Positions 51,896 through 64,000 of a stretch of DNA of 64,000 bases are shown here, in pieces (position 1 is the stretch's first letter; each line of letters begins with the position of its first letter). The stretch is from assembly GCA_048938895.1 (NCBI GenBank), contig JBHLLU010000001.1:1-64000 (forward strand), given 5' to 3'. Position numbers and translations under genes: made by a program. Source of the stretch: Promethearchaeota archaeon. Its GTDB lineage: Archaea; Asgardarchaeota; Lokiarchaeia; Sigyniarchaeales; SOKP01. The notes beneath the pieces were generated by a model that ran no database searches, was not told where the DNA came from, and was given only the letters and a program-made list of their open reading frames with translations.

Positions 51896-52027
51896 AAGTT
51901 ATTTTCTATGGGAGGATCTTTAACATCAGAAGAAATATTATCTGAAATCAGAATCCTTAAAGGTCCCTCATTCTGGTAAAAAGGAATTAATTACTCATCT
52001 GATTAAATATATAATTTAGAACAGTTT
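51896..52027 (+). pseudogene. Decayed copy of the pepF 3' end
   Basis: Translates KLFSMGGSLTSEEILSEIRI-LKGPSFW*KGINYSSD*IYNLEQF versus PepF C-terminus KLLSIGGSMTPEEMLTEIGIDLRDSSFWQKGINFLSGKIDELEQL (from 34779). Confidence 0.85.
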
Positions 52028-53223
52028 TATATTGATTTTCTTATTTGAAGTAATAATAAACCTACTATTAATACTAATGCTCCTGAGCTTATCATGGTGG
52101 AAAATCCCCCATACATATCTATTGACAGACCGAATAACCATATTATTACAGCACCCCCAAATAACCCATTGTGCAGAAAGCTTATAGCAGAAAGAACACT
52201 TGCTCTTTCTAATGAAGAGATGAGTTTGTTAGAGTAACTTTCCTCTAGTAATAATGCAAACTCAGTATTGATTGAAAAGAGAATTAGAAAAATCACTAAT
52301 AGATACCAAATATTCATAAAAGCGATGATAAAGAAAAGACCACCTTGAAATAAAATAATCAAATATAAACTACCAGTAGTTCCTAGTTTTTGTTCAATTT
52401 TACTCACAAAATATGAAGCAAACGCACTGATACCAACTATTATGGTAAATATTATCCCAATAATTGATGGAATTATATCAACTAATTTTAAATGAGCCTG
52501 ACTGAATACATCCCAGTAAGATTCAGCGAAGACATTTGCGATTAAAAAGAAAAATGCTAACCAGAGGAGTTGCTTATTTCTGAATATGTATTGTAAACTT
52601 TTTTTCATATTGCGAGTTAGTATCCTAAAATTGTATTTTTGACTAGATTTAAAAGGCTCTCTAATCATTGCTATAATTAAGAGAGAAAGACTGATTGTTA
52701 TAAACCAAACCCAATAAGGTAATTGAGGTCTAATAACAAATAGAAAACTTCCAAGTGGCATACCTAAAAGATTTGATATTAAAGAAAATGCATTAATACG
52801 TCCACTTATTTTCAAAAATTCATCTTCCCTCTCAAGTTCTTTCATTGTGTCAAATAATAAAGCTGATTTTGCTCCTGATTTAAATGAAAATTCAAGACCA
52901 CTTAAAATTCCTGCTATAACAATAGTTATGATTCCTCCCGAACTCAAATTTAAAAGTAAAATCATTAATAAAGTAAATGAATTTGCAATAAAAACTGTCC
53001 ATTTTCTACCAATCATATCGGCTAAACTACCACTTGGTAAATCTGTTAAAACAATTGCAATTGAGGTACAAGCTTCAAATATTCCAATAGCCGTAAAATT
53101 GAAGCCCAAATACTGAAAAAATAGAATATAAATTGCACTAATTACTCCAAAATTATAGAATACACTAGAAAGTCCAATTTACCAGATATTTGATTTTAAA
53201 TAGATAGAAGAGTCTGAAGACAT
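52027..53223 (-). pseudogene. MFS transporter with an early in-frame stop
   Basis: PSGSLADMIGRK (MFS motif A), SGAKSALLFD. The natural ATG at 53223 (MSSDSSIYLKSNIW*IGLSS...) is interrupted by TAA at 53179-53181. Confidence 0.75.
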
Positions 53224-53244
53224 ATGGCAAGGGATCTTTTTATT

Positions 53245-55140
53245 TTACTCTTCTAATTGTTCAATTTCTAAGATGAAAAGATTCGCAATGGTAATCCATT
53301 TCTGTTTTGTTTCCGTATCTAGAGAACTTTTTTCTATTAACTTCATCCCTTCTGTAAGGTACTCGACTGTTCGTTCTAGATCTTTAAGTTCTTTATAACA
53401 AATTCCAAGTTTAATATAGGTTTGAGGAATATACCATTCCTCACTTGCTAATTCTATTGCTGTTAAAAATTCTTCTATAGCATTTTCATACTCTTCAAAA
53501 TACATCAGGATTTCTCCATAAGTATCATGATACATCCCGTTATTGGGAAAGGTCTCTACAAGTTTCGAAATTATGGCAAGGGATTCATCCTTTCTATCCA
53601 AATATTGGAGCCAATAAGCTTTATAACTGATAAGGTCATTCTTTTTTGGATATTTTTCTATTAATTCATCAATAATTTCTAATCCTGCATTTATCTCCTG
53701 CATTCTTCTCAAAACAGATGCCTTTTTCATCCCAATATCAAGTTCTTCTTCTGGGAAAATTTCTAACATTTCATCTAATAGGCTTAAGACCTCATCGAAT
53801 TGATTATAATAGATCAAAATTCTAATTTTTGAATGATATAAGTCAAGATTCTCAGGATCGGATTTAATTTGTTTATCGATTTTCCTAATCTCTTCTATGT
53901 AGTCTTCCTGTAAATCTTCAATAGTTTTAGTTTGAAAAATATCTATCATATCCTGCCAAATAATTCCTTCTAATTTATCATAAGTCTCTTTTAATTCTAC
54001 TTTTGCTTCAATCTTATACGCTAAATAGTTAATGTACTGAGGTAAGAATTTGCGTAATGACTCCTTTAAGTCCTCATGGAACAATAAGCTACAAATATCT
54101 TCTAATATTTCATTTATAGTATTTCTTATATTAAGTGGTCTCGAAAACAATTTATTCAAATAGGTAAATTTAGTGATATAATCTTCTGTTATAGCTCTTA
54201 ACATTATTTCCAGTCTTTCACCCTCCTGAAAATAATAAATCAAATCTCCTGATGAAATTTTGAAAAATTTAATTGGAAAAATTTGATTTTCAATGATCTC
54301 GTCTATATAATAATTTAATTTCGATTCTTTAATTTTAAAAGTTCTTGAAAAGTCTTCTGGAGAGATATAATCAGGATACTGACTTGGATGGTTAATTGAG
54401 ACAAAGAGTAAAATCTTATCGAAATCCTCTTCATTCGTTAGCATTGATTCAACTCTAGTATAATCTAATTTTAACATATTATTTAAAAAGCGAAATTGTA
54501 CATCCTCATCTGAAATATCATATCGTTCGAAAAATTTGATAGTTTTTATAGTTATCTCTTCAATTCTCTTGCTTTCTTCTTCCAATATCGATTGCTTATC
54601 CAAGTCATAATTTTCTAACATCCTAGAATATTCTAATTTACCCGAACGGGTAATTCTGTATTTCTTTTCCTCTTTCTCTATAATTCCTTTATCAAGTAAC
54701 AAATTTATATTCTTAGATAAAGAGGATTGATTTATAGAAAGTGGTTCTGCCAAGAAATCAGCCCATTTGCAATAATTATTATTATAAACCATCCAAAGAA
54801 TCCAATGATCATAATTTCTTCTTCTTTTAATTATTGTAGGAGGATAGCTTAAGGATCTTTTTTTCCCTTTCGATTGAGAAAGTTCAAGATACCTCTTTCT
54901 GCCCTCTGAAGTAATTTTATAATGACCTCTAGAAATATTTTCTACATGACCCCTTCCCTTTAAAAGAGAGAGATATTTTGATAATGTTGATAATCTAAGC
55001 TCAAGTGGTTCTTGAGTGAAATCGGCCCACTCGCATTCATCATTGTTATACACCATCCATAGAATGATATGCTCAAAATTTTTTTTCTCTATTACTGGAG
55101 GTTTATAAATCTCCTTAGGAGGATAATTTACTTTGCTCAT
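53245..55140 (-). CDS. Tandem winged-HTH plus C-terminal TPR protein (putative regulator)
   Basis: Two repeats of ILWMVYNN..C.WADF..EPL....S.LSK...L...G......Y.IT..G; TPR-like C-terminus (YHDTYGEIL, KLGICYKEL). Confidence 0.8.
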   Translation of the reverse strand: MSKVNYPPKEIYKPPVIEKKNFEHIILWMVYNNDECEWADFTQEPLELRLSTLSKYLSLLKGRGHVENISRGHYKITSEGRKRYLELSQSKGKKRSLSYPPTIIKRRRNYDHWILWMVYNNNYCKWADFLAEPLSINQSSLSKNINLLLDKGIIEKEEKKYRITRSGKLEYSRMLENYDLDKQSILEEESKRIEEITIKTIKFFERYDISDEDVQFRFLNNMLKLDYTRVESMLTNEEDFDKILLFVSINHPSQYPDYISPEDFSRTFKIKESKLNYYIDEIIENQIFPIKFFKISSGDLIYYFQEGERLEIMLRAITEDYITKFTYLNKLFSRPLNIRNTINEILEDICSLLFHEDLKESLRKFLPQYINYLAYKIEAKVELKETYDKLEGIIWQDMIDIFQTKTIEDLQEDYIEEIRKIDKQIKSDPENLDLYHSKIRILIYYNQFDEVLSLLDEMLEIFPEEELDIGMKKASVLRRMQEINAGLEIIDELIEKYPKKNDLISYKAYWLQYLDRKDESLAIISKLVETFPNNGMYHDTYGEILMYFEEYENAIEEFLTAIELASEEWYIPQTYIKLGICYKELKDLERTVEYLTEGMKLIEKSSLDTETKQKWITIANLFILEIEQLEE

Positions 55141-55195
55141 ATATAGTATTAAAACATTTGACTATTTAAATTTCGCGAGCTTTTTTTAAAATTCG

Positions 55196-55234
55196 AACTT
55201 CATTCGAAGTTTTTTTTCTAAAACTAAATATAGA
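55196..55234 (+). promoter_or_regulatory. Palindromic operator plus TATA-like box (copy 1)
   Basis: AACTTC-ATTC-GAAGTT (55196-55211) followed by AAAACTAAATATAG. Confidence 0.65.
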
Positions 55235-55284
55235 ATTTTTGATATGTTATAATTATAAAAAAACCAAAAAAAAGGTATGAAAAA

Positions 55285-55365
55285 ATGACAAATAAGAAAG
55301 AAGAAACATTGGCTGATTATATTTTACATCCAAAGAAATATGCTTATGGATTAAAAGATCTTTAA
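55285..55365 (+). CDS. Microprotein MTNKKEETLADYILHPKKYAYGLKDL (26 aa)
   Basis: AAGGT SD-like site, T-tract after stop, homologous to 60784-60879. Confidence 0.75.
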   Translation: MTNKKEETLADYILHPKKYAYGLKDL

Positions 55366-55418
55366 ATATTTTTTTTTAATTATTATTTTTTAATAAACTC
55401 ATAAAGAGGTAAGAGAAA

Positions 55419-55496
55419 ATGAATAAAAAAGGAAAAAAGACAAATAAAATAATTATTAAATGCAATACACCTCATCAGAGATTTATAATTTTTTAA
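55419..55496 (+). CDS. Putative microprotein MNKKGKKTNKIIIKCNTPHQRFIIF (25 aa)
   Basis: GAGGT SD 8 nt upstream of ATG; in micro-ORF array. Confidence 0.5.
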   Translation: MNKKGKKTNKIIIKCNTPHQRFIIF

Positions 55497-55547
55497 TTTC
55501 ATATTTTTATCAGGCTTACTACCAGATTTTTCATTTCCATATTAAAG

Positions 55548-55575
55548 CCTCCTAGTAGCCTACATTACTAGGAGG
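55548..55575. terminator. GC-rich hairpin (possible terminator/processing signal)
   Basis: CCTCCTAGTA-N8-TACTAGGAGG perfect 10-bp stem. Confidence 0.5.
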
Positions 55576-55616
55576 TAAAATTTTATCAAAAACTTCTATA
55601 CTTCCCCATTGATTCG

Positions 55617-55654
55617 AACTTAGATTGAAGTTAATAGAATAAAACTAAATATAG
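55617..55654 (+). promoter_or_regulatory. Palindromic operator plus TATA-like box (copy 2)
   Basis: AACTTA-GATT-GAAGTT (55617-55632) then AAAACTAAATATAG, identical to the box in copy 1. Confidence 0.65.
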
Positions 55655-55705
55655 GTAACTAACAATACTAATATTAACAAAAAAAAGAAACAAGGTTAGA
55701 AAAAA

Positions 55706-55786
55706 ATGAAAAAAACCGCACAGAAAGGATTAATAAAAATAAATAGTTATGGTCAGAATCATCTTCTGCGAGATTTGCTTAAATAA
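55706..55786 (+). CDS. Putative microprotein MKKTAQKGLIKINSYGQNHLLRDLLK (26 aa)
   Basis: AAGGT SD-like site, follows operator copy 2, T-tract after stop. Confidence 0.55.
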   Translation: MKKTAQKGLIKINSYGQNHLLRDLLK

Positions 55787-55966
55787 TTTTTTTTCAATTC
55801 TAATTTTTATATCTAATTTGTATAATACATGCTCTAAATCCTTATTACATAAATTTGTATAATATTCTTTTTGATAGTATTAAGCTAAAATTTTATATTA
55901 CAGTAAATCTAATCTACTATTAATTAGATAGTGATAATGTATAATATTTTTCTCTAAATAGAAATA

Positions 55967-56521
55967 ATGACCGATGCTCAAAAATTTCGATTTAAAATTT
56001 CAGTAATAGGCGATGGGCAAGTTGGTAAGACATCCTTAATTAAGAAATTTACACAAGGAACGTTTGAAAAAGATTATGTAAAAACAATTGGAGCCCAATT
56101 CTCTAAATTTGATAAAGAAATCGAAGGAGATGAAATACGGTTGATCTTTTGGGATATTGCGGGTCAGGATGATTTTCTTTTCCTAAGACCCTCATTTTAC
56201 AAGGATAGTGGTGCTGCAATTATTGTTTTTAGCCTTGAAGATAATGATCTTGGTAATCGAAGCTTCGAACATGTACTTAATTGGCATGAGAATTTGAAAA
56301 AATTTTGTGGGGATATACCTATCATCTTATTTGCTAATAAAGTGGATCTCATTGATGAGGAAAATTTTAATGACTCTGAAATTCAAGAAATGGTCAAAGA
56401 AAATAATTTTCTCGGATATTATTTAACTTCTGCAAAAACCGGAGAAAATGTTCATGATGCGTTCAATACCCTTATAGAAAAACTATATTATAAATCTAAA
56501 GCATTAACTAAGGACTTATAA
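55967..56521 (+). CDS. Rab-like small GTPase
   Basis: GDGQVGKT, T(G2), WDIAGQ, NKVD, TSAK; no C-terminal prenylation Cys. Confidence 0.93.
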   Translation: MTDAQKFRFKISVIGDGQVGKTSLIKKFTQGTFEKDYVKTIGAQFSKFDKEIEGDEIRLIFWDIAGQDDFLFLRPSFYKDSGAAIIVFSLEDNDLGNRSFEHVLNWHENLKKFCGDIPIILFANKVDLIDEENFNDSEIQEMVKENNFLGYYLTSAKTGENVHDAFNTLIEKLYYKSKALTKDL

Positions 56522-56533
56522 ATCATTTATATG

Positions 56534-59068
56534 TTAAAAATCAACATCTAGTTGAGCAATATCAGCCATGTAAAGATTCACTATAGCTAGCCACCTCTTT
56601 TTTGTGTCTAAATCACAAAAGCATTTATTAGTGTATTCTTGTCCTTTACTGAGATTTTCAAGTGCTAAGTCAAATTTTTCAAGTTCCTTATAACATATTC
56701 CTAACTTAATAAAAGTCTGATTAATATACCATTCATCACCTGCTAATTCTATTGTCTTTAAAAATTCATTAGCCGCTTTTTCATACTCTTCAAAATTCAT
56801 TAATATTTCTCCATATGTGTCATGATATATCCCCATATCAGGATTGTTCTTTATGAGCTCTTCTATTGTATCTAGGACCAATTCCTTCTCATCCAGATAC
56901 TGTAACCAATAAACTTTATTAAGCATAAGATTGTTATCATTCGGATATTTTTCAAGTAAACTATTTATAATTTCTAAACCGGCTTCAATATTTTTCATTT
57001 CTTTAAGTATGTATGCTTTTTTGATTTTAAGGTTTCTTTCTCCCTCAGGAAACTCAGTAATCAATTTATCTAAGATTATAATGATATCATCGAATTGGTC
57101 AAAATATAATAGGATTCGAATTTTAGAATTATGGAAATCTAGATTGCTAGGATTTAATTTTAGTGCCTGTTCAATTGATTCTAACGCTTCATCATATCGA
57201 TCGAGCTCTAGTAGGACTGTAGTTTTTAGGTGATATAAGTGTGCTTTAATAATATTATTTGACTCTAATTCAATCGCTTTCTCAATATAACTTATCCCAT
57301 CTTCTTTTTCTGCTATTTCTTTATTAAAATCATAAATTTTATTATAACCAAGTACAAACCCTTTTAATCCATAAGAGAGAGCACTTTTAAGGAACGTCTC
57401 CGTTGCTTTATCAGCCATTCTCAACGCATTTTCTATATCCCCCAAAACAATATATGAAAATCCTAAAACAAAAAGACCAGAAATATAGATTTCATCTTCT
57501 TCGGAAACAGAGGATAAATCAATCTTACCTTCCAATAATTCTGTTGTTTCATTATTACGATTCAAGTGGCATAGAATTAGACTTTTAATAATATTAAGAT
57601 CTAAGTCTTTTATTTTCGATTTAGAAGTACCAAAAACCTTTTCTAAATCTACTAACCTCAATGATTTATTATATTCTTCAGATTGGATATACTGTTGGAT
57701 CTTGAAATTTAGTTTTTCTAGTTTGAAAAATGGTTTAAAATACGGTTGTAAAACCTCTAATATTGACTTATCTAAATAATAATTCATTTCACTCTCACTT
57801 ATAAATTGGTATTGACTTTTAGAGATATCAGCTTGTAAAATTTCGGGTATATTTTGCCATATAATACCTTCTAATTTGTCAGCAACACCCATTAATTTCT
57901 TTTCCTTTTCAATTTTATATGCCAAATAATTTATATATTCTGGTAGAAATTTTCTTAAAGAGCTTTTTAATCCTTCATTGAATATATTTTGGCATGCTTC
58001 TTCTAGAATCGCATTTACAGTGGAACTCATATTTAATGGAAGTATTAATTCTGACGAACTTTCAAAAAGTTTGTTTAGATATGTAAATTTTGTGATATGT
58101 TCTTCTGTAATAACTTGAAGCATCTTTTCTAATTTTTCATCAGATTGAAAATAATAAAATTTATCAGGAGGAACAGTTAATTTAAAAAATTTTATAGGAT
58201 AGATCTGATTTTCTACTATTTCATCAATATAATAATCAAGTGTTGTTTGCTTAATCCTATATTTTTCTGAGAATTCCTTAGATGAGATATATGCCGGAAA
58301 CTCATTTGGGTGATTAATAGCAAGAAAAAGTAATATTTTCCTAAAGTTGTCTTCATCTTTTAATACAGACTTAATTTTTTCATATTCTAATCTTAAGACA
58401 CTGTTAAGAAATCGGAATTGAATATTCCTCTCTCTGATCTGAAAGCTATCAATAAATTTTGTAGTTTTTTGGGTAATATCAGCAATCCTTTTAATTTCTT
58501 CTTCAAGTATCGATTGTCTATCTAAGTTATAAAAAGTCAACATTTTTGAATACTGTGTTTTACCAGGTCGCGTAATCCTATATTCTTTATTTTCTTTTGT
58601 TACAAATCCTTTATCCATTAACAAGTTCATATTCTTTGATAATGAAGATTGATTTATCGAAAGTGGTTCTTCAAGAAAATCTGCCCATTTACAATAATTA
58701 TTATTATAAACCATCCATAAGATTGTATGATCATAATTTCTTCTTTCAAGAATAACTTTAGGAGGATAACTTAATTTTCTTTTCCCTTTTTTTGTTTGGC
58801 TTAATTCATAATATCTTTCTCTTCCTTTAGATGTAATCTTATATTCATTGAACTGGCTTTTTAAAATATAACCTTCGCGCTTCAGTTTACCCAAATAAAT
58901 TGATAATGTTGATTTATTTATTTTTTCTTTTAAATCTCCCCAGGAACATGCATCATTGTTACTTAATATCCAAAGTACGATGTATTCATAATTGGGCTTA
59001 CCGATAATAGGATTTAAAATCTCCTCCGGGGGATAATTACAAGAAGTACCCAAATCGTTTACCATCAA
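56534..59068 (-). CDS. Tandem winged-HTH plus extended TPR protein (paralog of 53245-55140)
   Basis: Same NY[DE]H.ILWMVYNNNYCKWADFL.EPLSINQSSLSKN repeat and TPR C-terminus, with ~200 extra residues of TPR. Confidence 0.8.
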   Translation of the reverse strand: MMVNDLGTSCNYPPEEILNPIIGKPNYEYIVLWILSNNDACSWGDLKEKINKSTLSIYLGKLKREGYILKSQFNEYKITSKGRERYYELSQTKKGKRKLSYPPKVILERRNYDHTILWMVYNNNYCKWADFLEEPLSINQSSLSKNMNLLMDKGFVTKENKEYRITRPGKTQYSKMLTFYNLDRQSILEEEIKRIADITQKTTKFIDSFQIRERNIQFRFLNSVLRLEYEKIKSVLKDEDNFRKILLFLAINHPNEFPAYISSKEFSEKYRIKQTTLDYYIDEIVENQIYPIKFFKLTVPPDKFYYFQSDEKLEKMLQVITEEHITKFTYLNKLFESSSELILPLNMSSTVNAILEEACQNIFNEGLKSSLRKFLPEYINYLAYKIEKEKKLMGVADKLEGIIWQNIPEILQADISKSQYQFISESEMNYYLDKSILEVLQPYFKPFFKLEKLNFKIQQYIQSEEYNKSLRLVDLEKVFGTSKSKIKDLDLNIIKSLILCHLNRNNETTELLEGKIDLSSVSEEDEIYISGLFVLGFSYIVLGDIENALRMADKATETFLKSALSYGLKGFVLGYNKIYDFNKEIAEKEDGISYIEKAIELESNNIIKAHLYHLKTTVLLELDRYDEALESIEQALKLNPSNLDFHNSKIRILLYFDQFDDIIIILDKLITEFPEGERNLKIKKAYILKEMKNIEAGLEIINSLLEKYPNDNNLMLNKVYWLQYLDEKELVLDTIEELIKNNPDMGIYHDTYGEILMNFEEYEKAANEFLKTIELAGDEWYINQTFIKLGICYKELEKFDLALENLSKGQEYTNKCFCDLDTKKRWLAIVNLYMADIAQLDVDF

Positions 59069-59216
59069 AAAATCTTTTCTTATAATTAGTATATACGACA
59101 GGTTTATTTATATATTTTGATCAAAACTCTAATTAGAGTTAAATAAATGCTACTATTAATGGATTATATAAAAGGGGAATAGAATTAAAATGTGGGTATT
59201 ATCTAAAAAAATCTAG

Positions 59217-59250
59217 AACTTCATTTGGAGTTCCTTTAAATGAACTAAAA
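59217..59250 (+). promoter_or_regulatory. Palindromic operator (copy 3)
   Basis: AACTTC-ATTT-GGAGTT (59217-59232) with AACTAAAA starting 11 nt later, as in copy 2. Confidence 0.55.
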
Positions 59251-59374
59251 AGTAACCGCTAAATTCTTAAAAAAAGCTTAAATTTTAATGTATTTTCAAT
59301 TTTAAGCTGGCCCATATAAAAATCTTCTGTTTTTGAAATCCTTAAAAATAAATTTCACTATAATTTAATTGATA

Positions 59375-59695
59375 ATGGCAAGCTTTACTTCTAGAGCTCA
59401 TTTAAGCGATTTTAAATATGCAGTTAAAATAATATCTGATTGTAGAGATAATTGGCTTCAGGATCAATTTCCAAATATTGACCAATTATTGTATGATTAT
59501 GGTTTAATAGATATTACTGGCAAAATTCAAGATTTTAAATCATATTACCAATTCAGAGATGCTCTTGATCATTTAACAGATTATAATTTCATTCGGATTT
59601 TCATCGATTCTAGATCAATTCCTCGAATTTACCAAGGAGGAAGAGAGATTCCAAATAACTTTACTTTTGATGATTACTGGTCAAGAAATGATTAA
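59375..59695 (+). CDS. Hypothetical protein
   Basis: ATG 59375, 106 aa, protein-like composition; no motif recognised. Confidence 0.6.
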   Translation: MASFTSRAHLSDFKYAVKIISDCRDNWLQDQFPNIDQLLYDYGLIDITGKIQDFKSYYQFRDALDHLTDYNFIRIFIDSRSIPRIYQGGREIPNNFTFDDYWSRND

Positions 59696-59834
59696 TTCTT
59701 AGTTTAACAATTTTTCAAAAATATTGAAATTTTACCTTTTTGTATATAATCCAATTCTACTTCTAAGATCCAAACTCATATTAAACATCAATATCTTAGG
59801 TAATTGGATGTTTAAACATCTAAAACTAATCTTG

Positions 59835-59870
59835 GACTCCTTTTGAACTTCGTGAGCTTAAACTATAAAT
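59835..59870 (+). promoter_or_regulatory. Degenerate operator plus TATA-like box (copy 4)
   Basis: GACTCC-TTTT-GAACTT (59835-59850) with AACTATAAAT starting 11 nt later, ahead of ORF 59924. Confidence 0.45.
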
Positions 59871-59923
59871 GAAACCTTGGGTTAAGTAATCTTAGCAATA
59901 AAAAAAGAGAGTGATAATGAGAA

Positions 59924-60181
59924 ATGACACAAATAATTGCAAAGGAAGATACTCCTGTTGAACTTGAAGATTTACATATAATTCTGGCGAAACGCAAATT
60001 GAAACTTAAAACCAAGATCACTGAAGAAACTAAAAAACAACAATGCGAACTGTATGAATTATTTAAAGAATTTAATCCAAACTACTTTGAAGAAGCAATT
60101 CCAGTCAAAAATGCACTTGATAAGCTTTATACTTCAGATATCAAATTCAGATCTACATTCGATTTTTCTAGGATGTACTAA
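59924..60181 (+). CDS. Hypothetical protein (85 aa)
   Basis: ATG with GAGTGA SD-like site. Confidence 0.65.
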   Translation: MTQIIAKEDTPVELEDLHIILAKRKLKLKTKITEETKKQQCELYELFKEFNPNYFEEAIPVKNALDKLYTSDIKFRSTFDFSRMY

Positions 60182-60215
60182 TATATTTGAATTAAAATTG
60201 AGAGGTGGTTGAAAT

Positions 60216-60479
60216 ATGGTTCAAGTATATATTAAGAAAAATGAATTGGAAAAACCGTATAAAATTGAAGAAATAATAATATATGAAGAACTCCCTGCTG
60301 AAAAGGAAGAGTATAGGGTAACAAGAGTCAAAGCAGAGGAGAAACCAGTTAAAAAAGCTTTGCGTAGGCTCATAGAGAAAGCAAAGTATAATCCGAAATA
60401 TATAGAAGAAACTTTTCTTATGGAAAAATTGAGAAGAGATATTCATAAGAATTATTATCGAAACTACGGAATCTACTAA
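60216..60479 (+). CDS. Hypothetical highly charged protein (87 aa)
   Basis: GAGGTG SD, operon-like spacing from the previous ORF. Confidence 0.7.
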   Translation: MVQVYIKKNELEKPYKIEEIIIYEELPAEKEEYRVTRVKAEEKPVKKALRRLIEKAKYNPKYIEETFLMEKLRRDIHKNYYRNYGIY

Positions 60480-60553
60480 AAATCGTTTTATTCTCATCAC
60501 GCTGATTCAATTCATCCGACAAGCCGAAGTAGTAAAGTCAGGGAGAAATCAGG

Positions 60554-60580
60554 GGAGGGGGATCTTTAAAATCCCCCTCC
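60554..60580. terminator. GC-rich hairpin
   Basis: GGAGGGGGAT-N7-ATCCCCCTCC perfect 10-bp stem. Confidence 0.5.
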
Positions 60581-60625
60581 ATTACAAAAAATTTGATATA
60601 TATTAAAATAAAAAAAGGAGGGCGA

Positions 60626-60724
60626 ATGAAAATGAAAAAGAAAAAATTGGAGAGAATTGAAAGGATTAAGATAAGGAACGATCTTGAAGAGCATAAGCTC
60701 CTAATTAATCGTATAATTAAATGA
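60626..60724 (+). CDS. Putative microprotein MKMKKKKLERIERIKIRNDLEEHKLLINRIIK (32 aa)
   Basis: Strong GGAGG SD; T-tract after stop. Confidence 0.6.
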   Translation: MKMKKKKLERIERIKIRNDLEEHKLLINRIIK

Positions 60725-60783
60725 TTAATTTTTTCACATTTTTGAAAAATTATATATATACATTTAAATTAGAGGTAAAAAAA

Positions 60784-60879
60784 ATGCCAAAAAAGAAAGA
60801 AAAAGCATTGGATGCTACATTAACAGATTTGCTTTTAAATCCAAAGAAATATAAATTTGGATTAAAAGACCTACACTAA
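60784..60879 (+). CDS. Microprotein MPKKKEKALDATLTDLLLNPKKYKFGLKDLH (31 aa)
   Basis: GAGGT SD; homologous to 55285-55365 (TL.D..L.PKKY..GLKDL); long T-tract downstream. Confidence 0.75.
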   Translation: MPKKKEKALDATLTDLLLNPKKYKFGLKDLH

Positions 60880-61149
60880 AAAAATTTTTTTTTTATATTT
60901 ACTTTTAATGAATTAAGGATTAAGTATTTATGACAATCTTGTCAACGTTTAAATATTAGTATAAGGAGGCATAAGCCTAATAAATATTCGGGGAAATTTA
61001 TAGAAATAGAACTTCTTTAACTATTTCTTACAGTTTCCAGTAATAATTCGTTATAAACCAAAATTTTATATTAAAAAATATCTGATCTTAGTTTAATTAC
61101 TTATTTTTTATAAAGAATATATTCCAAGTAATTTTCCCCTAAAAGATCT

Positions 61150-61713
61150 ATGAGTGAAGACGGGCGTAGGTTTAGGTTTAAAATAACGGTAATCGGAGAT
61201 GGTAGAGTAGGAAAGACTACTCTTATTAGGAGGTACACTCAAGGATCATTTAAAAAGGATTATGTTAAGACAATTGGGGCACAATTTTCAGTATATGATA
61301 ATGAAATTGGAGGAGATAAAGTCCGACTAATATTTTGGGATATTGCGGGACAAGATACGTTTCACTTCTTAAGACCTTCATTTTTTAGCAATAGTAAAGG
61401 AGCAATTATTGTATATAGTCTTGAAGACAATAAACACGGACATGATAGTTTTGACCACATCTCAATTTGGGATGAAGATATAAAAAAACACTGTGGTGAG
61501 ATTCCTGTTGTTTTATTTGCAAACAAAGTAGATTTAGTGGATGAATCTAATATAGATCAATCCGTCCTAAAAGAAATTGTCGAGGAGAATGGTTATCTTG
61601 GATATTATATAACTTCAGCAAAAACAGGAAAGGGAGTGTTTACAGCTTTCAATATTTTAATAGAAAATTTGTATAAATCGTCCAAAGCATTATCTCTTGA
61701 ATTACAAGATTAG
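61150..61713 (+). CDS. Rab-like small GTPase
   Basis: GDGRVGKT, WDIAGQ, NKVD, TSAK. Confidence 0.93.
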   Translation: MSEDGRRFRFKITVIGDGRVGKTTLIRRYTQGSFKKDYVKTIGAQFSVYDNEIGGDKVRLIFWDIAGQDTFHFLRPSFFSNSKGAIIVYSLEDNKHGHDSFDHISIWDEDIKKHCGEIPVVLFANKVDLVDESNIDQSVLKEIVEENGYLGYYITSAKTGKGVFTAFNILIENLYKSSKALSLELQD

Positions 61714-61866
61714 AATAGAACCAAAACTATTTCTTTCTTATTTCAAATTGTATATATTAGACTTACTAGACTTTTTATTCAAAAGCTTTATAATGTTTTA
61801 TACCTAGATTATGTTCATAAAATATTTTTTTAAAAACTTCATATTCCGAATTTCCAAGAAAAATTT

Positions 61867-62418
61867 ATGAAGGATATAAGTTTTGTTTTTAAAATTGTTG
61901 TTATAGGGGATGGAAGAGTAGGGAAAACTACACTAATTCAAAAATTTACAAAAAGCACCTTTAAGGAAGAATATATAAAAACAATTGGTGCCGATCTCTC
62001 AAATTACGATTATGTAATTGACAACGACAAAATTAGACTTCAATTCTGGGATATTGCAGGGCAAGATAAGTTTCATTTCTTACGTCCTTCATTTTTTAAC
62101 AAAAGTAGAGCAGGAATTATTGTTTATAGCCTTGAGGACAATAAACTTGGTCAAGAGAGTTTTAAGAATATCCCAAATTGGTATGCTGAAATCAAGAAAT
62201 ATTGTGGGGATATCCCAATTATTATTTTTGCTAATAAGGCAGATTTAGTAGAGTTTTCTCAAGTAGATGAAACCCCTATCCAAGAATTTGTTAAGGAAAA
62301 TAAATTGCTTGGTTATAAAATTACATCAGCTAAAACAGGAGAGGGAGTCATTGATGCTTTTAATACAATTATCAAAAATTTGTATGATAAATTTAAATCT
62401 CTTTCCGAAAATAGTTAA
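61867..62418 (+). CDS. Rab-like small GTPase (tandem paralog)
   Basis: GDGRVGKT, WDIAGQ, NKAD, TSAK. Confidence 0.93.
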   Translation: MKDISFVFKIVVIGDGRVGKTTLIQKFTKSTFKEEYIKTIGADLSNYDYVIDNDKIRLQFWDIAGQDKFHFLRPSFFNKSRAGIIVYSLEDNKLGQESFKNIPNWYAEIKKYCGDIPIIIFANKADLVEFSQVDETPIQEFVKENKLLGYKITSAKTGEGVIDAFNTIIKNLYDKFKSLSENS

Positions 62419-62553
62419 TTTTTTCTTAAATCTTTATCATTTTCATGCATTTTTCCAAAAAATACTATCATCGAATGCAATCCTTTATATATATAAAAAA
62501 ATAATATCAATTAATTTCAAATTAATTTTGTGCGAAATCAAAGAGGTGCTATT

Positions 62554-62784
62554 ATGGTAAATATTGAAATTGACGTCGTTAATAAACCTACAAATAGATT
62601 CAGAATTGAGCAGTATTTTGGGACACCAGTTGCTAATGAAATATTTCAATGTCTTCAACAACATATTGGTTTGTCTGCATCACAAGCAGAAGCACAACTA
62701 AGAGCTTCAATCCAAAGAACAGCAAATGCTATAGCAAAGGAAGATGAAATTATCACAATTATGGGATTTATAACTGTAGGTTAA
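62554..62784 (+). CDS. Small protein, candidate RiPP precursor 1 (ends MGFITVG)
   Basis: GAGGTG SD before ATG 62554; paralog of 62853-63086. Confidence 0.75.
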   Translation: MVNIEIDVVNKPTNRFRIEQYFGTPVANEIFQCLQQHIGLSASQAEAQLRASIQRTANAIAKEDEIITIMGFITVG

Positions 62785-62852
62785 AAATCCTTTATAAAAG
62801 GTTGAAAATATTAATCTAATTAAAATTAAGTACACTTCAATGAGGTGTTGAA

Positions 62853-63086
62853 ATGTCAATCAACGCAGATAAAGTAAAGAAAAAATCAAATAGAAAAAGA
62901 CTTGATAGATTCTTCGGCAGAGATAAAGCACAAACGATTATAGATTGCTTACAAGATTGTGTAAATCAAGGGAAATCAAGTGCTGATATGGGGGATTGTG
63001 TAAAAAATTGTCTTATCCAAAAAGGATTCAGCGCGTCTAAAGCCGATGAAGCAGTCAGTCTCATGGGTTTCATAACAGTAGGTTAA
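62853..63086 (+). CDS. Small protein, candidate RiPP precursor 2 (ends MGFITVG)
   Basis: GAGGTG SD; shares NR.R....FG...A..I..CLQ and DE....MGFITVG with the upstream gene. Confidence 0.75.
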   Translation: MSINADKVKKKSNRKRLDRFFGRDKAQTIIDCLQDCVNQGKSSADMGDCVKNCLIQKGFSASKADEAVSLMGFITVG

Positions 63087-63140
63087 AGGAAGAAGTTATT
63101 ATCTAATTTTTTTCATATAATTTTTCTAAAGTGGCTTATC

Positions 63141-64000
63141 TTGATCCCTGAATCTATAGATTTATTAATGATTTTTCCTTCAGGAGGGGATATTTATCAA
63201 ACAAATTTCAATCACCACCTAGGAACAGCATATATAATAGGTTATGTAAGGAAACATGGATTTAAAGCTAAACAGTTTTTATCAAACACCCAATATAATG
63301 TTAGAGAATGTGTTAAATCAATTTTCCAATACAATCCAAAAGTAATAGGGTTTACTGTTTATGAAAGCAATTATATGCAATCAGTTTTACTGTCGACTTT
63401 CATAAAAAAAGAAAAGCCTAATATTATTATAATTTTTGGGGGTCCTACTCCGACTATTCACTCTGAATACTTATTAAAACAAGTCAACAGTATTGATCTC
63501 TGTGTAAGACAAGAAGGTGAAGAAACTGTACTTGAAATTTTAAAAGAATTACAGAGTGTCAATTATACTATATCAAGAGCCAATTTTACTGAAATTAAAG
63601 GTATAATCTATAGAATTAAAGATCAAATCTTCAAAAATCCTGATAGTGACTACCTTTATTCAAAAAGACATATTAGGAATTACATTGATAAATATCCCTC
63701 TCCATACCTTTCTGAAATTATCCCTAAAAGTAAAGCTTTTCCCATAGGGATACTTACGGGAAGAGGATGTAATCAGTCTTGTACGTATTGTAACTGTGCT
63801 GTTTTAAGTAAAAAGAACATATATTTTCATTCAATAGGGAGAGTAATTGAAGAACTAGAATTTATTAGTCAACAAGAGAAATTTTCACATCCCATTCCTA
63901 TATATGATGATGCTTTTACAATAATTCCTTCACGAGCGAAAAAAATTTGCGAAACTATCATTGAAAAGGACATAAAAATTCCGTTATTATGTATTACTCG
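63141..64000 (+). CDS. Cobalamin-binding radical SAM protein (partial, runs off window)
   Basis: Not in the ORF track. HLGTAYI, VIGFTVY, FGGPTPT and EGEET (B12-binding domain); TGRGCNQSCTYC (CxxxCxxC at 63768-63791); DDAFT. Start is TTG 63141 or ATG 63168. Confidence 0.9.
   Translation, partial: MIPESIDLLMIFPSGGDIYQTNFNHHLGTAYIIGYVRKHGFKAKQFLSNTQYNVRECVKSIFQYNPKVIGFTVYESNYMQSVLLSTFIKKEKPNIIIIFGGPTPTIHSEYLLKQVNSIDLCVRQEGEETVLEILKELQSVNYTISRANFTEIKGIIYRIKDQIFKNPDSDYLYSKRHIRNYIDKYPSPYLSEIIPKSKAFPIGILTGRGCNQSCTYCNCAVLSKKNIYFHSIGRVIEELEFISQQEKFSHPIPIYDDAFTIIPSRAKKICETIIEKDIKIPLLCIT

Follow-up and report, generated by a model that had tools for sequence, protein, structure and literature searches.

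Two paralogous modules in an Asgard genome

In a stretch of 64,000 nucleotides from a Promethearchaeota archaeon (positions 1 to 64,000 of contig JBHLLU010000001.1, assembly GCA_048938895.1; hereafter the window) we find two paralogous gene modules, at 53245-56521 and 56534-62418. Each has a minus-strand gene for a protein with winged helix-turn-helix (wHTH) domains and a tetratricopeptide repeat (TPR) array, followed on the plus strand by a series of very small genes and by one or two genes for Rab-like GTPases. The module is real, conserved and lineage-restricted, made of ordinary parts in an unusual combination, and its duplication is ancient. We read it, tentatively, as a candidate intracellular regulatory circuit tied to one clade of Asgard GTPases.

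Module 1 consists of TPR1 on the minus strand and then, on the plus strand, mp1a, mp1b, hairpin 1, mp1c and GTP1; in module 2, TPR2 on the minus strand is followed on the plus strand by o108, o85, o87, hairpin 2, mp2d, mp2e, GTP2 and GTP3. This doubled layout had been proposed in an initial annotation of the same DNA. All the parts it named are in their places, and the whole order (TPR1, micro-genes, GTP1, TPR2, small genes, GTP2) recurs in five congeneric genomes, G002, G019, G004, G013 and G018, where G000 denotes the 4.65-Mb source genome, labels with C its contigs and other labels with G related genomes. The larger small-protein genes o108, o85 and o87 of module 2 are additions to its list. 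An Asgard host, as it had assumed, agrees with the labels of close homologues (Promethearchaeota, Lokiarchaeota and other Asgard names), and the micro-genes and GTPases on whose conservation beside homologous regulators it had staked its proposal are indeed conserved there.

Range and gene neighbourhoods

A search for the regulator family with residues 1-400 of TPR1 as query found it in all 24 genomes of genus g1 (family f1), at 2-10 copies each, and in the single genome of family f3, and in none of the 11 genomes of f2 or the four of f4. Within a phylum-wide sample of 201 genomes it was present in 31 of 40 from family f1 and in one of 160 from other families, the latter being a 63-residue match at a contig end. 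The module is restricted to essentially one family of Loki-type Asgard archaea.

Adjacency was counted for 120 regulators of the genus in 25 genomes, all with a match over no fewer than 328 of the query's 400 residues; 14 shorter regulator matches and the single one from f3 were dropped. The GTPase side comprised the best 150 of 175 matches at E<=1e-45, referred to below as the listed GTPases. A listed GTPase of the clade lies within 3 kb of 51 of the 120 regulators and always on the opposite strand (35 divergent, 16 convergent), against a chance expectation of about 2 in 120 by our own estimate from some seven such GTPases per 4-Mb genome. Broken down by regulator length, adjacency is found for 40/63 proteins of about 640 residues, 6/26 of about 850, 5/15 below 530 and 0/16 of about 1000. 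Seen from the other side, 59 of the 150 listed GTPases have a regulator within 3 kb.

The o87 family has the same range as the regulator, with 29 matches in 22 of 41 genomes (20/24 in f1, 1/1 in f3, 0/11 in f2, 0/4 in f4). As many as 27 of the 29 lie divergently and no more than 4 kb upstream of a wHTH-TPR gene, which gives 27 of 121 regulators an o87 neighbour. The tightest partner of the regulator is the o87 family (84 residues), not a micropeptide. The micro-protein family A has 52 matches, spread over 24 of 41 genomes. A regulator lies no more than 4 kb from 27 of them, a GTPase is also near 24 of these 27, and 24 of the 52 stand near neither.

The wHTH-TPR proteins

TPR1 (53245..55140, minus strand) encodes 631 residues, in which two winged helices and a third, winged-helix-like fold precede a TPR array at the C-terminus; TPR2 (56534..59068, minus strand) encodes an 844-residue paralogue with a longer array. 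The two are 45-49% identical, orthologues of TPR2 in four genomes are 66-77% identical, and the source genome holds five wHTH-TPR paralogues. Their initial description as tandem-wHTH/TPR genes is borne out by Pfam, which finds winged-helix and TPR families in both: HTH_45 is above its cut-off in TPR1 and TPR2 (34.8 bits against 25.5 in TPR1, along with TPR families), HTH_34 in TPR2, and TPR_2, TPR_1, TPR_14 and TPR_8 in TPR2. Taken together, the winged-helix matches of the regulators are to HTH_45, HTH_34 and MarR. In NCBIfam, three archaeal families of DNA-binding proteins (Sso10a, Sta1, Lrs14) matched below threshold. A PDB sequence search with residues 1-400 of TPR1 returned two matches, both at E 0.12, and an Lrs14-like regulator is one of the two.

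An AlphaFold2 model of TPR1, built on an alignment of 23 sequences, has a mean predicted local distance difference test score (pLDDT) of 76.6. It places winged helices at residues 22-91 and 110-176, then a helical stretch, a winged-helix-like unit at 237-305 and paired TPR helices at 407-630; the first two units have a helix-helix-helix-hairpin arrangement with pLDDT mostly of 80-93. A Foldseek comparison with the PDB gave generic TPR proteins only (designed CTPR, OGT, APC/C subunits, Tom70, MamA, PEX5) among the roughly 34 matches listed (ranks to 50) of at least 500. Judged by these predicted domains, the wHTH-TPR protein is a probable DNA-binding protein.

Note that a helix of the second winged helix, PLSINQSSLSK (TPR1 residues 134-144, at about 54709-54741 of the window on the minus strand), is invariant in both protein alignments across paralogue classes, and that its counterpart in the first winged helix varies. 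The palindrome described below shows a similar pattern, its left half being invariant and its right half variable, and we infer that the two patterns may be linked.

A regulator paralogue on contig C9 (L055, G000:C9:6500-10500) faces larger genes, not micro-genes, namely those for a 182-residue protein of no family and a 654-residue TPR protein (TPR_12; weak TPR_MalT), and then a GTPase gene. Pfam gave no longin domain in the 654-residue protein. A role in defence was considered and dropped, the PADLOC search having yielded generic winged-helix matches and nothing beyond them.

Small-protein genes

Five tiny open reading frames (ORFs) lie on the plus strand, all of them with the Shine-Dalgarno (SD) site that had been ascribed to them. 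In module 1 these are mp1a (55285..55365, 26 residues, family A, ending in ...PKKYxYGLKDL, with an oligo-T tail), mp1b (55419..55496, 25 residues) and mp1c (55706..55786, 26 residues), and in module 2 mp2d (60626..60724, 32 residues, with GGAGG 6 nt before the ATG) and mp2e (60784..60879, 31 residues), a family-A paralogue of mp1a. Every one of the micro-genes comes with a TATA-like element, an SD site and an oligo-T tail of its own. The larger genes, likewise on the plus strand, are o108 (59369..59695), for a conserved protein of about 106 residues that matches no known family, o85 (59924..60181; 85 residues with an NPxYFEE core) and o87 (60216..60479; 87 residues), whose family is the one most tightly tied to wHTH-TPR genes.

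Homologues of the micro-genes in other genomes retain the frame, the exact stop, the oligo-T tail and an SD site 6-10 nt before the ATG; mp1c orthologues in G004, G013 and G002 are of equal length, each with SD site and T-tail. The ratio of non-synonymous to synonymous differences (pN/pS) is 0.33 for the final 16 codons in family A (11 genes, 55 non-independent pairs), 0.31 for mp1c (six pairs), 0.29 for mp1a (one pair) and 0.36 for mp2d (two pairs), which is 74-83% identical in two genomes. For the larger genes it is 0.18 for o108 (three pairs; 72-79% identical in three genomes), 0.50 for o85 (five pairs; orthologues in five genomes) and 0.34 for o87 (four pairs). The weakest micro-gene, mp1b, has a pN/pS of 0.84 from one pair and relatives only in G004 and on contig C15 of its own genome, and its status as a gene is doubtful. 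To judge from their sequences, the other tiny ORFs are genes under purifying selection, because frame, SD site, stop and oligo-T tail are kept and pN/pS is about 0.3.

The lysine-rich N-termini and the absence of a hydrophobic core that the initial annotation had noted are confirmed; a hydrophobic or signal-like stretch is found in none of the micro-proteins. As evidenced by hhalign, o85 is homologous to o87 (probability 91.9%, E 7e-7), and family A matches neither o85 nor o87 significantly (probability 0.7% and 0.04%). An NPx[YF] motif as the common denominator of all small proteins was rejected: family A shows no significant relation to o85 or o87, and the proline is not retained in mp1b, mp1c and most o87 members. 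The family-A motif also forms the C-terminus of proteins of 75-100 residues. Several conserved family-A or related frames (L031, L039, L043, L045, L047) have no in-frame ATG and may use another start codon.

The proteins o108, o85 and o87 belong to no Pfam, NCBIfam or PADLOC family, and an Atlas search gave only matches below 0.9 for o108 and no usable one for o87. The AlphaFold2 model of o87 is mostly disordered, at a pLDDT of 51 too poor for a structure search. All 65 representatives of its family among 1.84 billion proteins are 31-125 residues long; a longer, fused form was not found, which is weak evidence. Co-folding of TPR2 residues 180-843 with GTP2, GTP and, as the scored partner, mp2e gave a score of 0.00 in both runs, which were made without controls; this outcome counts neither for nor against binding.

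Rab-like GTPases

GTP1 (55967..56521; 184 residues; Pfam Ras, 141.6 bits) closes module 1, and GTP2 (61150..61713; 187 residues) and GTP3 (61867..62418; 183 residues), both matching Pfam Ras and standing in tandem, close module 2; all three are on the plus strand. The proposed Rab-like GTPase at the end of each module is thereby substantiated, at 135-145 bits for Pfam Ras, with two copies in module 2. Their mutual identity is 60-65%, and GTP3 is retained behind GTP2 in G002 and G013. Among 22 sequences the G1-G5 motifs (GDGxVGKT, switch-I Thr, DIAGQ, NKxD, SAK) are invariant or nearly so, and the catalytic Gln of DxxGQ is kept; pN/pS is 0.18 for GTP1 and 0.25 for GTP2 (five pairs each). The best solved relatives of GTP1 are Rab23 (E 7e-34) and a Thorarchaeota Rab, PDB 7ezb (E 5e-29). 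No cysteine occurs in the last 12 residues of the three GTPases of the window or of 19 relatives.

A tail of the form K-x-L-S-x-E/D-L or similar ends many GTPases of the clade (GTP2, GTP3, L039-L050), at least 7 of the 19 relatives included; a conserved free C-terminus is the type of ligand bound by some TPR domains, and we note it as a lead only. On contig C140 (L056, G000:C140:45000-48000) a gene at 632-2185 on the minus strand encodes 517 residues with two tandem Ras-type domains (two stretches of Pfam Ras). The second is 55% identical to GTP1, and its catalytic Gln is replaced by Ala. Immediately ahead of the gene stand a small o85-like gene and a stretch resembling a GC hairpin; there is no regulator gene in the vicinity.

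Promoter-like elements and hairpins

The initial annotation had described operator boxes shared by both modules. In module 1 these are strong; module 2 has degenerate versions only. Box 1 (55191..55233, plus strand) lies 51-93 nt from the start of TPR1 and ahead of mp1a, and box 2 (55612..55654, plus strand) ahead of mp1c; both combine a palindrome of the GAACTTC-N-GAAGTT type with a TATA-like element. In each, GAACTTC is followed after 3-5 nt by GAAGTT(C), 8 nt later by AAACTAAATATAG, and about 50 nt further on by SD site and ATG. The two are 77% alike over 43 nt. Against a profile built from four copies of the box in the source genome, with a reporting limit of E<1, they score E 1.4e-8 (box 1) and 5.8e-10 (box 2). 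Box 1 is conserved in five of six aligned genomes and flanked by a conserved TATA-like stretch that faces TPR1 and by another that faces mp1a. A degenerate palindrome at 59213..59233 (plus strand), about 145 nt from the start of TPR2, was read by eye and is weak, having no profile match at E<1.

In the 4.65 Mb of the source genome the profile finds seven sites, three of which, two on C125 and a third on C15, precede a regulator gene by no more than 750 nt. At the 19 loci with TPR1 orthologues (L010-L028) it matches in 14, in 13 cases at 63-106 nt and in one at 250 nt from the start codon. The box is a promoter type for small genes and not a private operator, because a looser profile also finds the promoters of o85, an o87-like gene (C107), o85-like genes (C55, C62) and a multi-copy family of 57 residues; one copy regularly stands back to back with TPR1 orthologues. 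The family of 57-62 residues behind this palindrome-plus-TATA promoter type occurs at C137:29633-29721, C119:21946-22031, C53:1167-1275 and C23:10933-11038, with no wHTH-TPR gene within 4 kb. The best copy of box, TATA element and SD site outside the regulator loci, C41:3701-3821 on the minus strand, precedes a 29-residue ORF with an oligo-T tail, and a more distant Ras-type gene lies 2 kb off.

The GTPases have a promoter-like element of their own. Ahead of GTP1 (55883..55929, plus strand) it consists of an A/T-rich, TATA-like stretch followed by ATCTAATCT, and no other near-invariant run in the alignment of six genomes is as long. The related element of GTP2 (61057..61090, plus strand) is the second-best match in the 4.65-Mb genome (nhmmer E 0.044). 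Four of the five matches of the element profile in that genome lie 66-93 nt before GTPases of the clade (GTP1, GTP2 and those on C9 and C15).

A GC hairpin is present in each module as described, with stems of 12 and 10 bp that both outperform shuffled sequences (200 each). Hairpin 1 (55547..55576, plus strand; 6-nt loop), between mp1b and mp1c, has a predicted energy of -18.4 kcal/mol (z -5.05, 0/200 shuffles as good); it is found in three of six genomes, with stem bases differing on both sides among genomes. Hairpin 2 (60554..60580, plus strand; z -3.03, 2/200 shuffles as good) is found in five of six, the sixth locus ending at a contig end. No Rfam family matches 53000-64000 at E<=1.

Neighbouring genes

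A major facilitator superfamily (MFS) transporter gene (52027-53109) lies directly downstream of TPR1 on the same strand. It is absent from the other loci searched, where a biotin-carboxylase-like neighbour is kept instead, and as a candidate peptide exporter it was discarded on that account; no conserved transporter was found in the module at the loci compared. Beyond module 2, the stretches 62530-63086 and 63141-64000 hold two small paralogous proteins (84 and 77 residues, 34% identical, E 7e-16), both ending in MGFITVG and directly followed by a B12-binding radical S-adenosylmethionine gene that runs off the window; these may be a pair of precursor peptides with their modifying enzyme. The sequencing runs listed as containing the 9.2-kb stretch are 11 from five studies, all of DNA and none of RNA, one of which may be its source. 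A description of the module was not found in full-text searches of the literature; supplementary tables of papers on Asgard GTPases or asCOGs might list such neighbourhoods.

Interpretation

The reading that we favour, to which we give a little less than an even chance on the sequence evidence, is that of an intracellular regulator circuit tied to the GTPase clade, lineage-specific and anciently duplicated. The wHTH-TPR protein would be a one-component transcription regulator that binds the GAACTTC-N3-5-GAAGTTC palindrome separating the regulator's TATA box from the one that serves the first small gene, and would by this binding control both itself and the small-protein genes. Its TPR array would receive a protein ligand made by the module, which may be an o85/o87-type protein, a family-A small protein or the GTP-bound GTPase. 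The module would in this way couple the state of a dedicated clade of Rab-like GTPases to the expression of small, largely disordered proteins. Action inside the cell is suggested because the micro-proteins have no hydrophobic core and no transporter is conserved.

Several observations weigh against this circuit. Its coupling to GTPases is partial: 69 of the 120 regulators, including all 16 of the class of about 1000 residues, have no listed GTPase within 3 kb, 91 of the 150 listed GTPases have no regulator nearby, and no o87 member is near 94 of the 121 regulators. Module 2 has degenerate boxes only (that at 59834-59927 reaches nhmmer E 0.87), the 10 loci that represent other paralogue classes (L029-L038) are all without a profile match, and four of the seven profile sites in the source genome (on C41, C152, C137 and C119) stand ahead of small genes that have no wHTH-TPR gene closer than 4 kb. 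Winged helices may also serve protein binding instead of DNA binding. Finally, the genomes of one genus are kin, and the counts are of non-independent events and overstate their number.

A more specific version of the circuit, in which the GTP-bound Rab-like GTPase, alone or with a micro-protein or o87-type cofactor, docks on the TPR array of a factor with three winged helices and switches binding to the GAACTTC palindrome, we regard as distinctly unlikely. If true, it would be, in the prokaryotes most closely related to eukaryotes, a pathway from a small GTPase to gene expression of a kind not described in archaea or bacteria, with dedicated regulator/GTPase pairs diversified by duplication.

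The main rival, in our estimate rather unlikely, is a scaffold without a transcriptional role: the wHTH-TPR protein would be an effector, adaptor or regulator of the GTPase, its winged helices would bind protein, the small proteins would be subunits or ligands, and the palindrome would belong to a general factor. TPR domains that bind GTP-loaded small GTPases are known, as in p67phox with Rac and SgmX with MglA, and such a function would fit both the adjacency of listed GTPases to 51 of 120 regulators and the presence of the box at loci without a regulator. The arrangement on C140, where an o85-like gene and a GC hairpin directly precede the tandem-GTPase gene with no regulator nearby, points the same way. 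The winged-helix domains, however, match DNA-binding families, the recognition-type helix of the second one is invariant across paralogues, and in 13 of the 19 orthologues the spacing between palindrome and start codon is fixed, as is typical of an autoregulated factor.

It is very unlikely that the micro-genes are cis-acting leaders or upstream ORFs whose translation tunes read-through into the GTPase gene, with the hairpins as attenuators. They do share a strand with the GTPases and lie immediately ahead of them, and GC hairpins with SD-like and anti-SD-like arms occur among them. Yet the selection on them is purifying at the level of the amino acid sequence, each has its own TATA-like element and oligo-T tail, the GTPases have their own conserved promoter-like element, and 27 of the 52 family-A genes have no GTPase nearby.

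Quorum sensing of the RRNPP type, the analogy drawn in the initial annotation, is very unlikely indeed and comes down to a resemblance in layout. The micro-proteins would be exported, accumulate outside, re-enter the cell, bind the TPR array and switch the regulator. In its favour, a DNA-binding TPR protein stands beside conserved genes for peptides of 24-32 residues whose C-terminal motif and stop are strictly kept. Against it, no peptide has a hydrophobic or signal-like stretch, and the module has no conserved exporter, importer or protease (the MFS gene, 52027-53109, is missing at other loci). The DNA-binding domain is of another class, and RRNPP receptors appear neither in Pfam, nor in the PDB sequence search with residues 1-400, nor among the Foldseek matches listed. 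A motif that also ends proteins of 75-100 residues is, moreover, a poor fit to a dedicated pro-peptide. Nothing shows that the small proteins are secreted signals.

Uncoupled clustering, in which expanded lineage-specific families were copied together by segmental duplication, is scarcely credible. In its favour, every family occurs in multiple copies within the genus (per genome, 2-10 regulators and 3-13 clade GTPases) and many members stand alone. Against it, the strands are constant (51/51 pairs with listed GTPases opposite, 27/27 nearby o87 genes divergent), the o87-regulator pair is kept in a second family (G026), and the order has survived a synonymous-site divergence of 0.6-0.8.

Asgard genomes encode dozens of Ras-superfamily GTPases without assigned partners or roles, and the main use of the module lies in the candidate partners that it names for one clade of them: a probable DNA-binding TPR protein, a disordered family of about 84 residues found almost only beside the regulator, and three families of 24-32 residues. 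It also adds verified archaeal micro-protein genes with a common promoter type.

Comparison with known systems

RRNPP cassettes of Bacillota and their phages (Rgg/SHP, PlcR/PapR, NprR/NprX, PrgX, AimR/AimP) pair a receptor that has one N-terminal XRE-type helix-turn-helix and a C-terminal TPR-type array with adjoining short-peptide genes that carry an export signal. The module resembles them in joining an N-terminal DNA-binding part to a C-terminal TPR-type array in one polypeptide, next to genes for very short peptides. It differs in its two winged helices and third winged-helix-like fold, in peptides without an export signal, in the added GTPase and proteins of 84-108 residues, and in its archaeal host. 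Among four testable defining features of RRNPP systems, the C-terminal TPR-type repeats are present and the other three are missing: Pfam finds no XRE-type family in the regulators at E<=0.01, receptor similarity is lacking in the searches named above, and the peptides and neighbours of the module include neither a pro-peptide with an export signal nor a dedicated exporter.

Regulators of the MalT and SARP/AfsR type also join a DNA-binding domain to TPR-type sensor repeats, an architecture that the wHTH-TPR proteins share. The protein neighbouring the C9 paralogue even shows a weak match to TPR_MalT (35.8 bits, below the cut-off of 45). However, the module has no NTPase domain of the signal transduction ATPases with numerous domains (STAND) type, and its winged helix is of a different kind. 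The second winged helix finds its best matches, in NCBIfam and in the PDB sequence search, in Sso10a, Sta1 and Lrs14; all of these matches stay below the curated cut-offs (34 bits against 60 and 23.6 against 80), and those proteins are single-domain factors of about 100 residues without TPRs.

On the GTPase side, the closest solved relatives of GTP1 are eukaryotic Rab23 and Rab21 and the Thorarchaeota Rab (PDB 7ezb, PMC10933270), with which it shares the full set of G1-G5 motifs. The passages of PMC10933270 that deal with MK-D1 state that, as a rule, its GTPase genes do not share operons with roadblock, longin or TRAPPC3 genes and that their partners are hard to predict from genome layout; compared with the genes described there, the present clade has conserved neighbours. 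Unlike eukaryotic Rabs, its members lack a cysteine at the C-terminus that could be prenylated.

TPR effectors of small GTPases are exemplified by SgmX with MglA (and MglB) in Myxococcus and by p67phox with Rac, which have neither a DNA-binding domain nor micro-protein genes. Both of these are additions in the module, and the common ground is a TPR protein genetically tied to a Ras-superfamily GTPase, here by gene adjacency. Such TPR effectors and the TPR-bearing regulators are functional analogies only, and by analogy with the former they offer a way in which the TPR array could read the GTP state of its GTPase.

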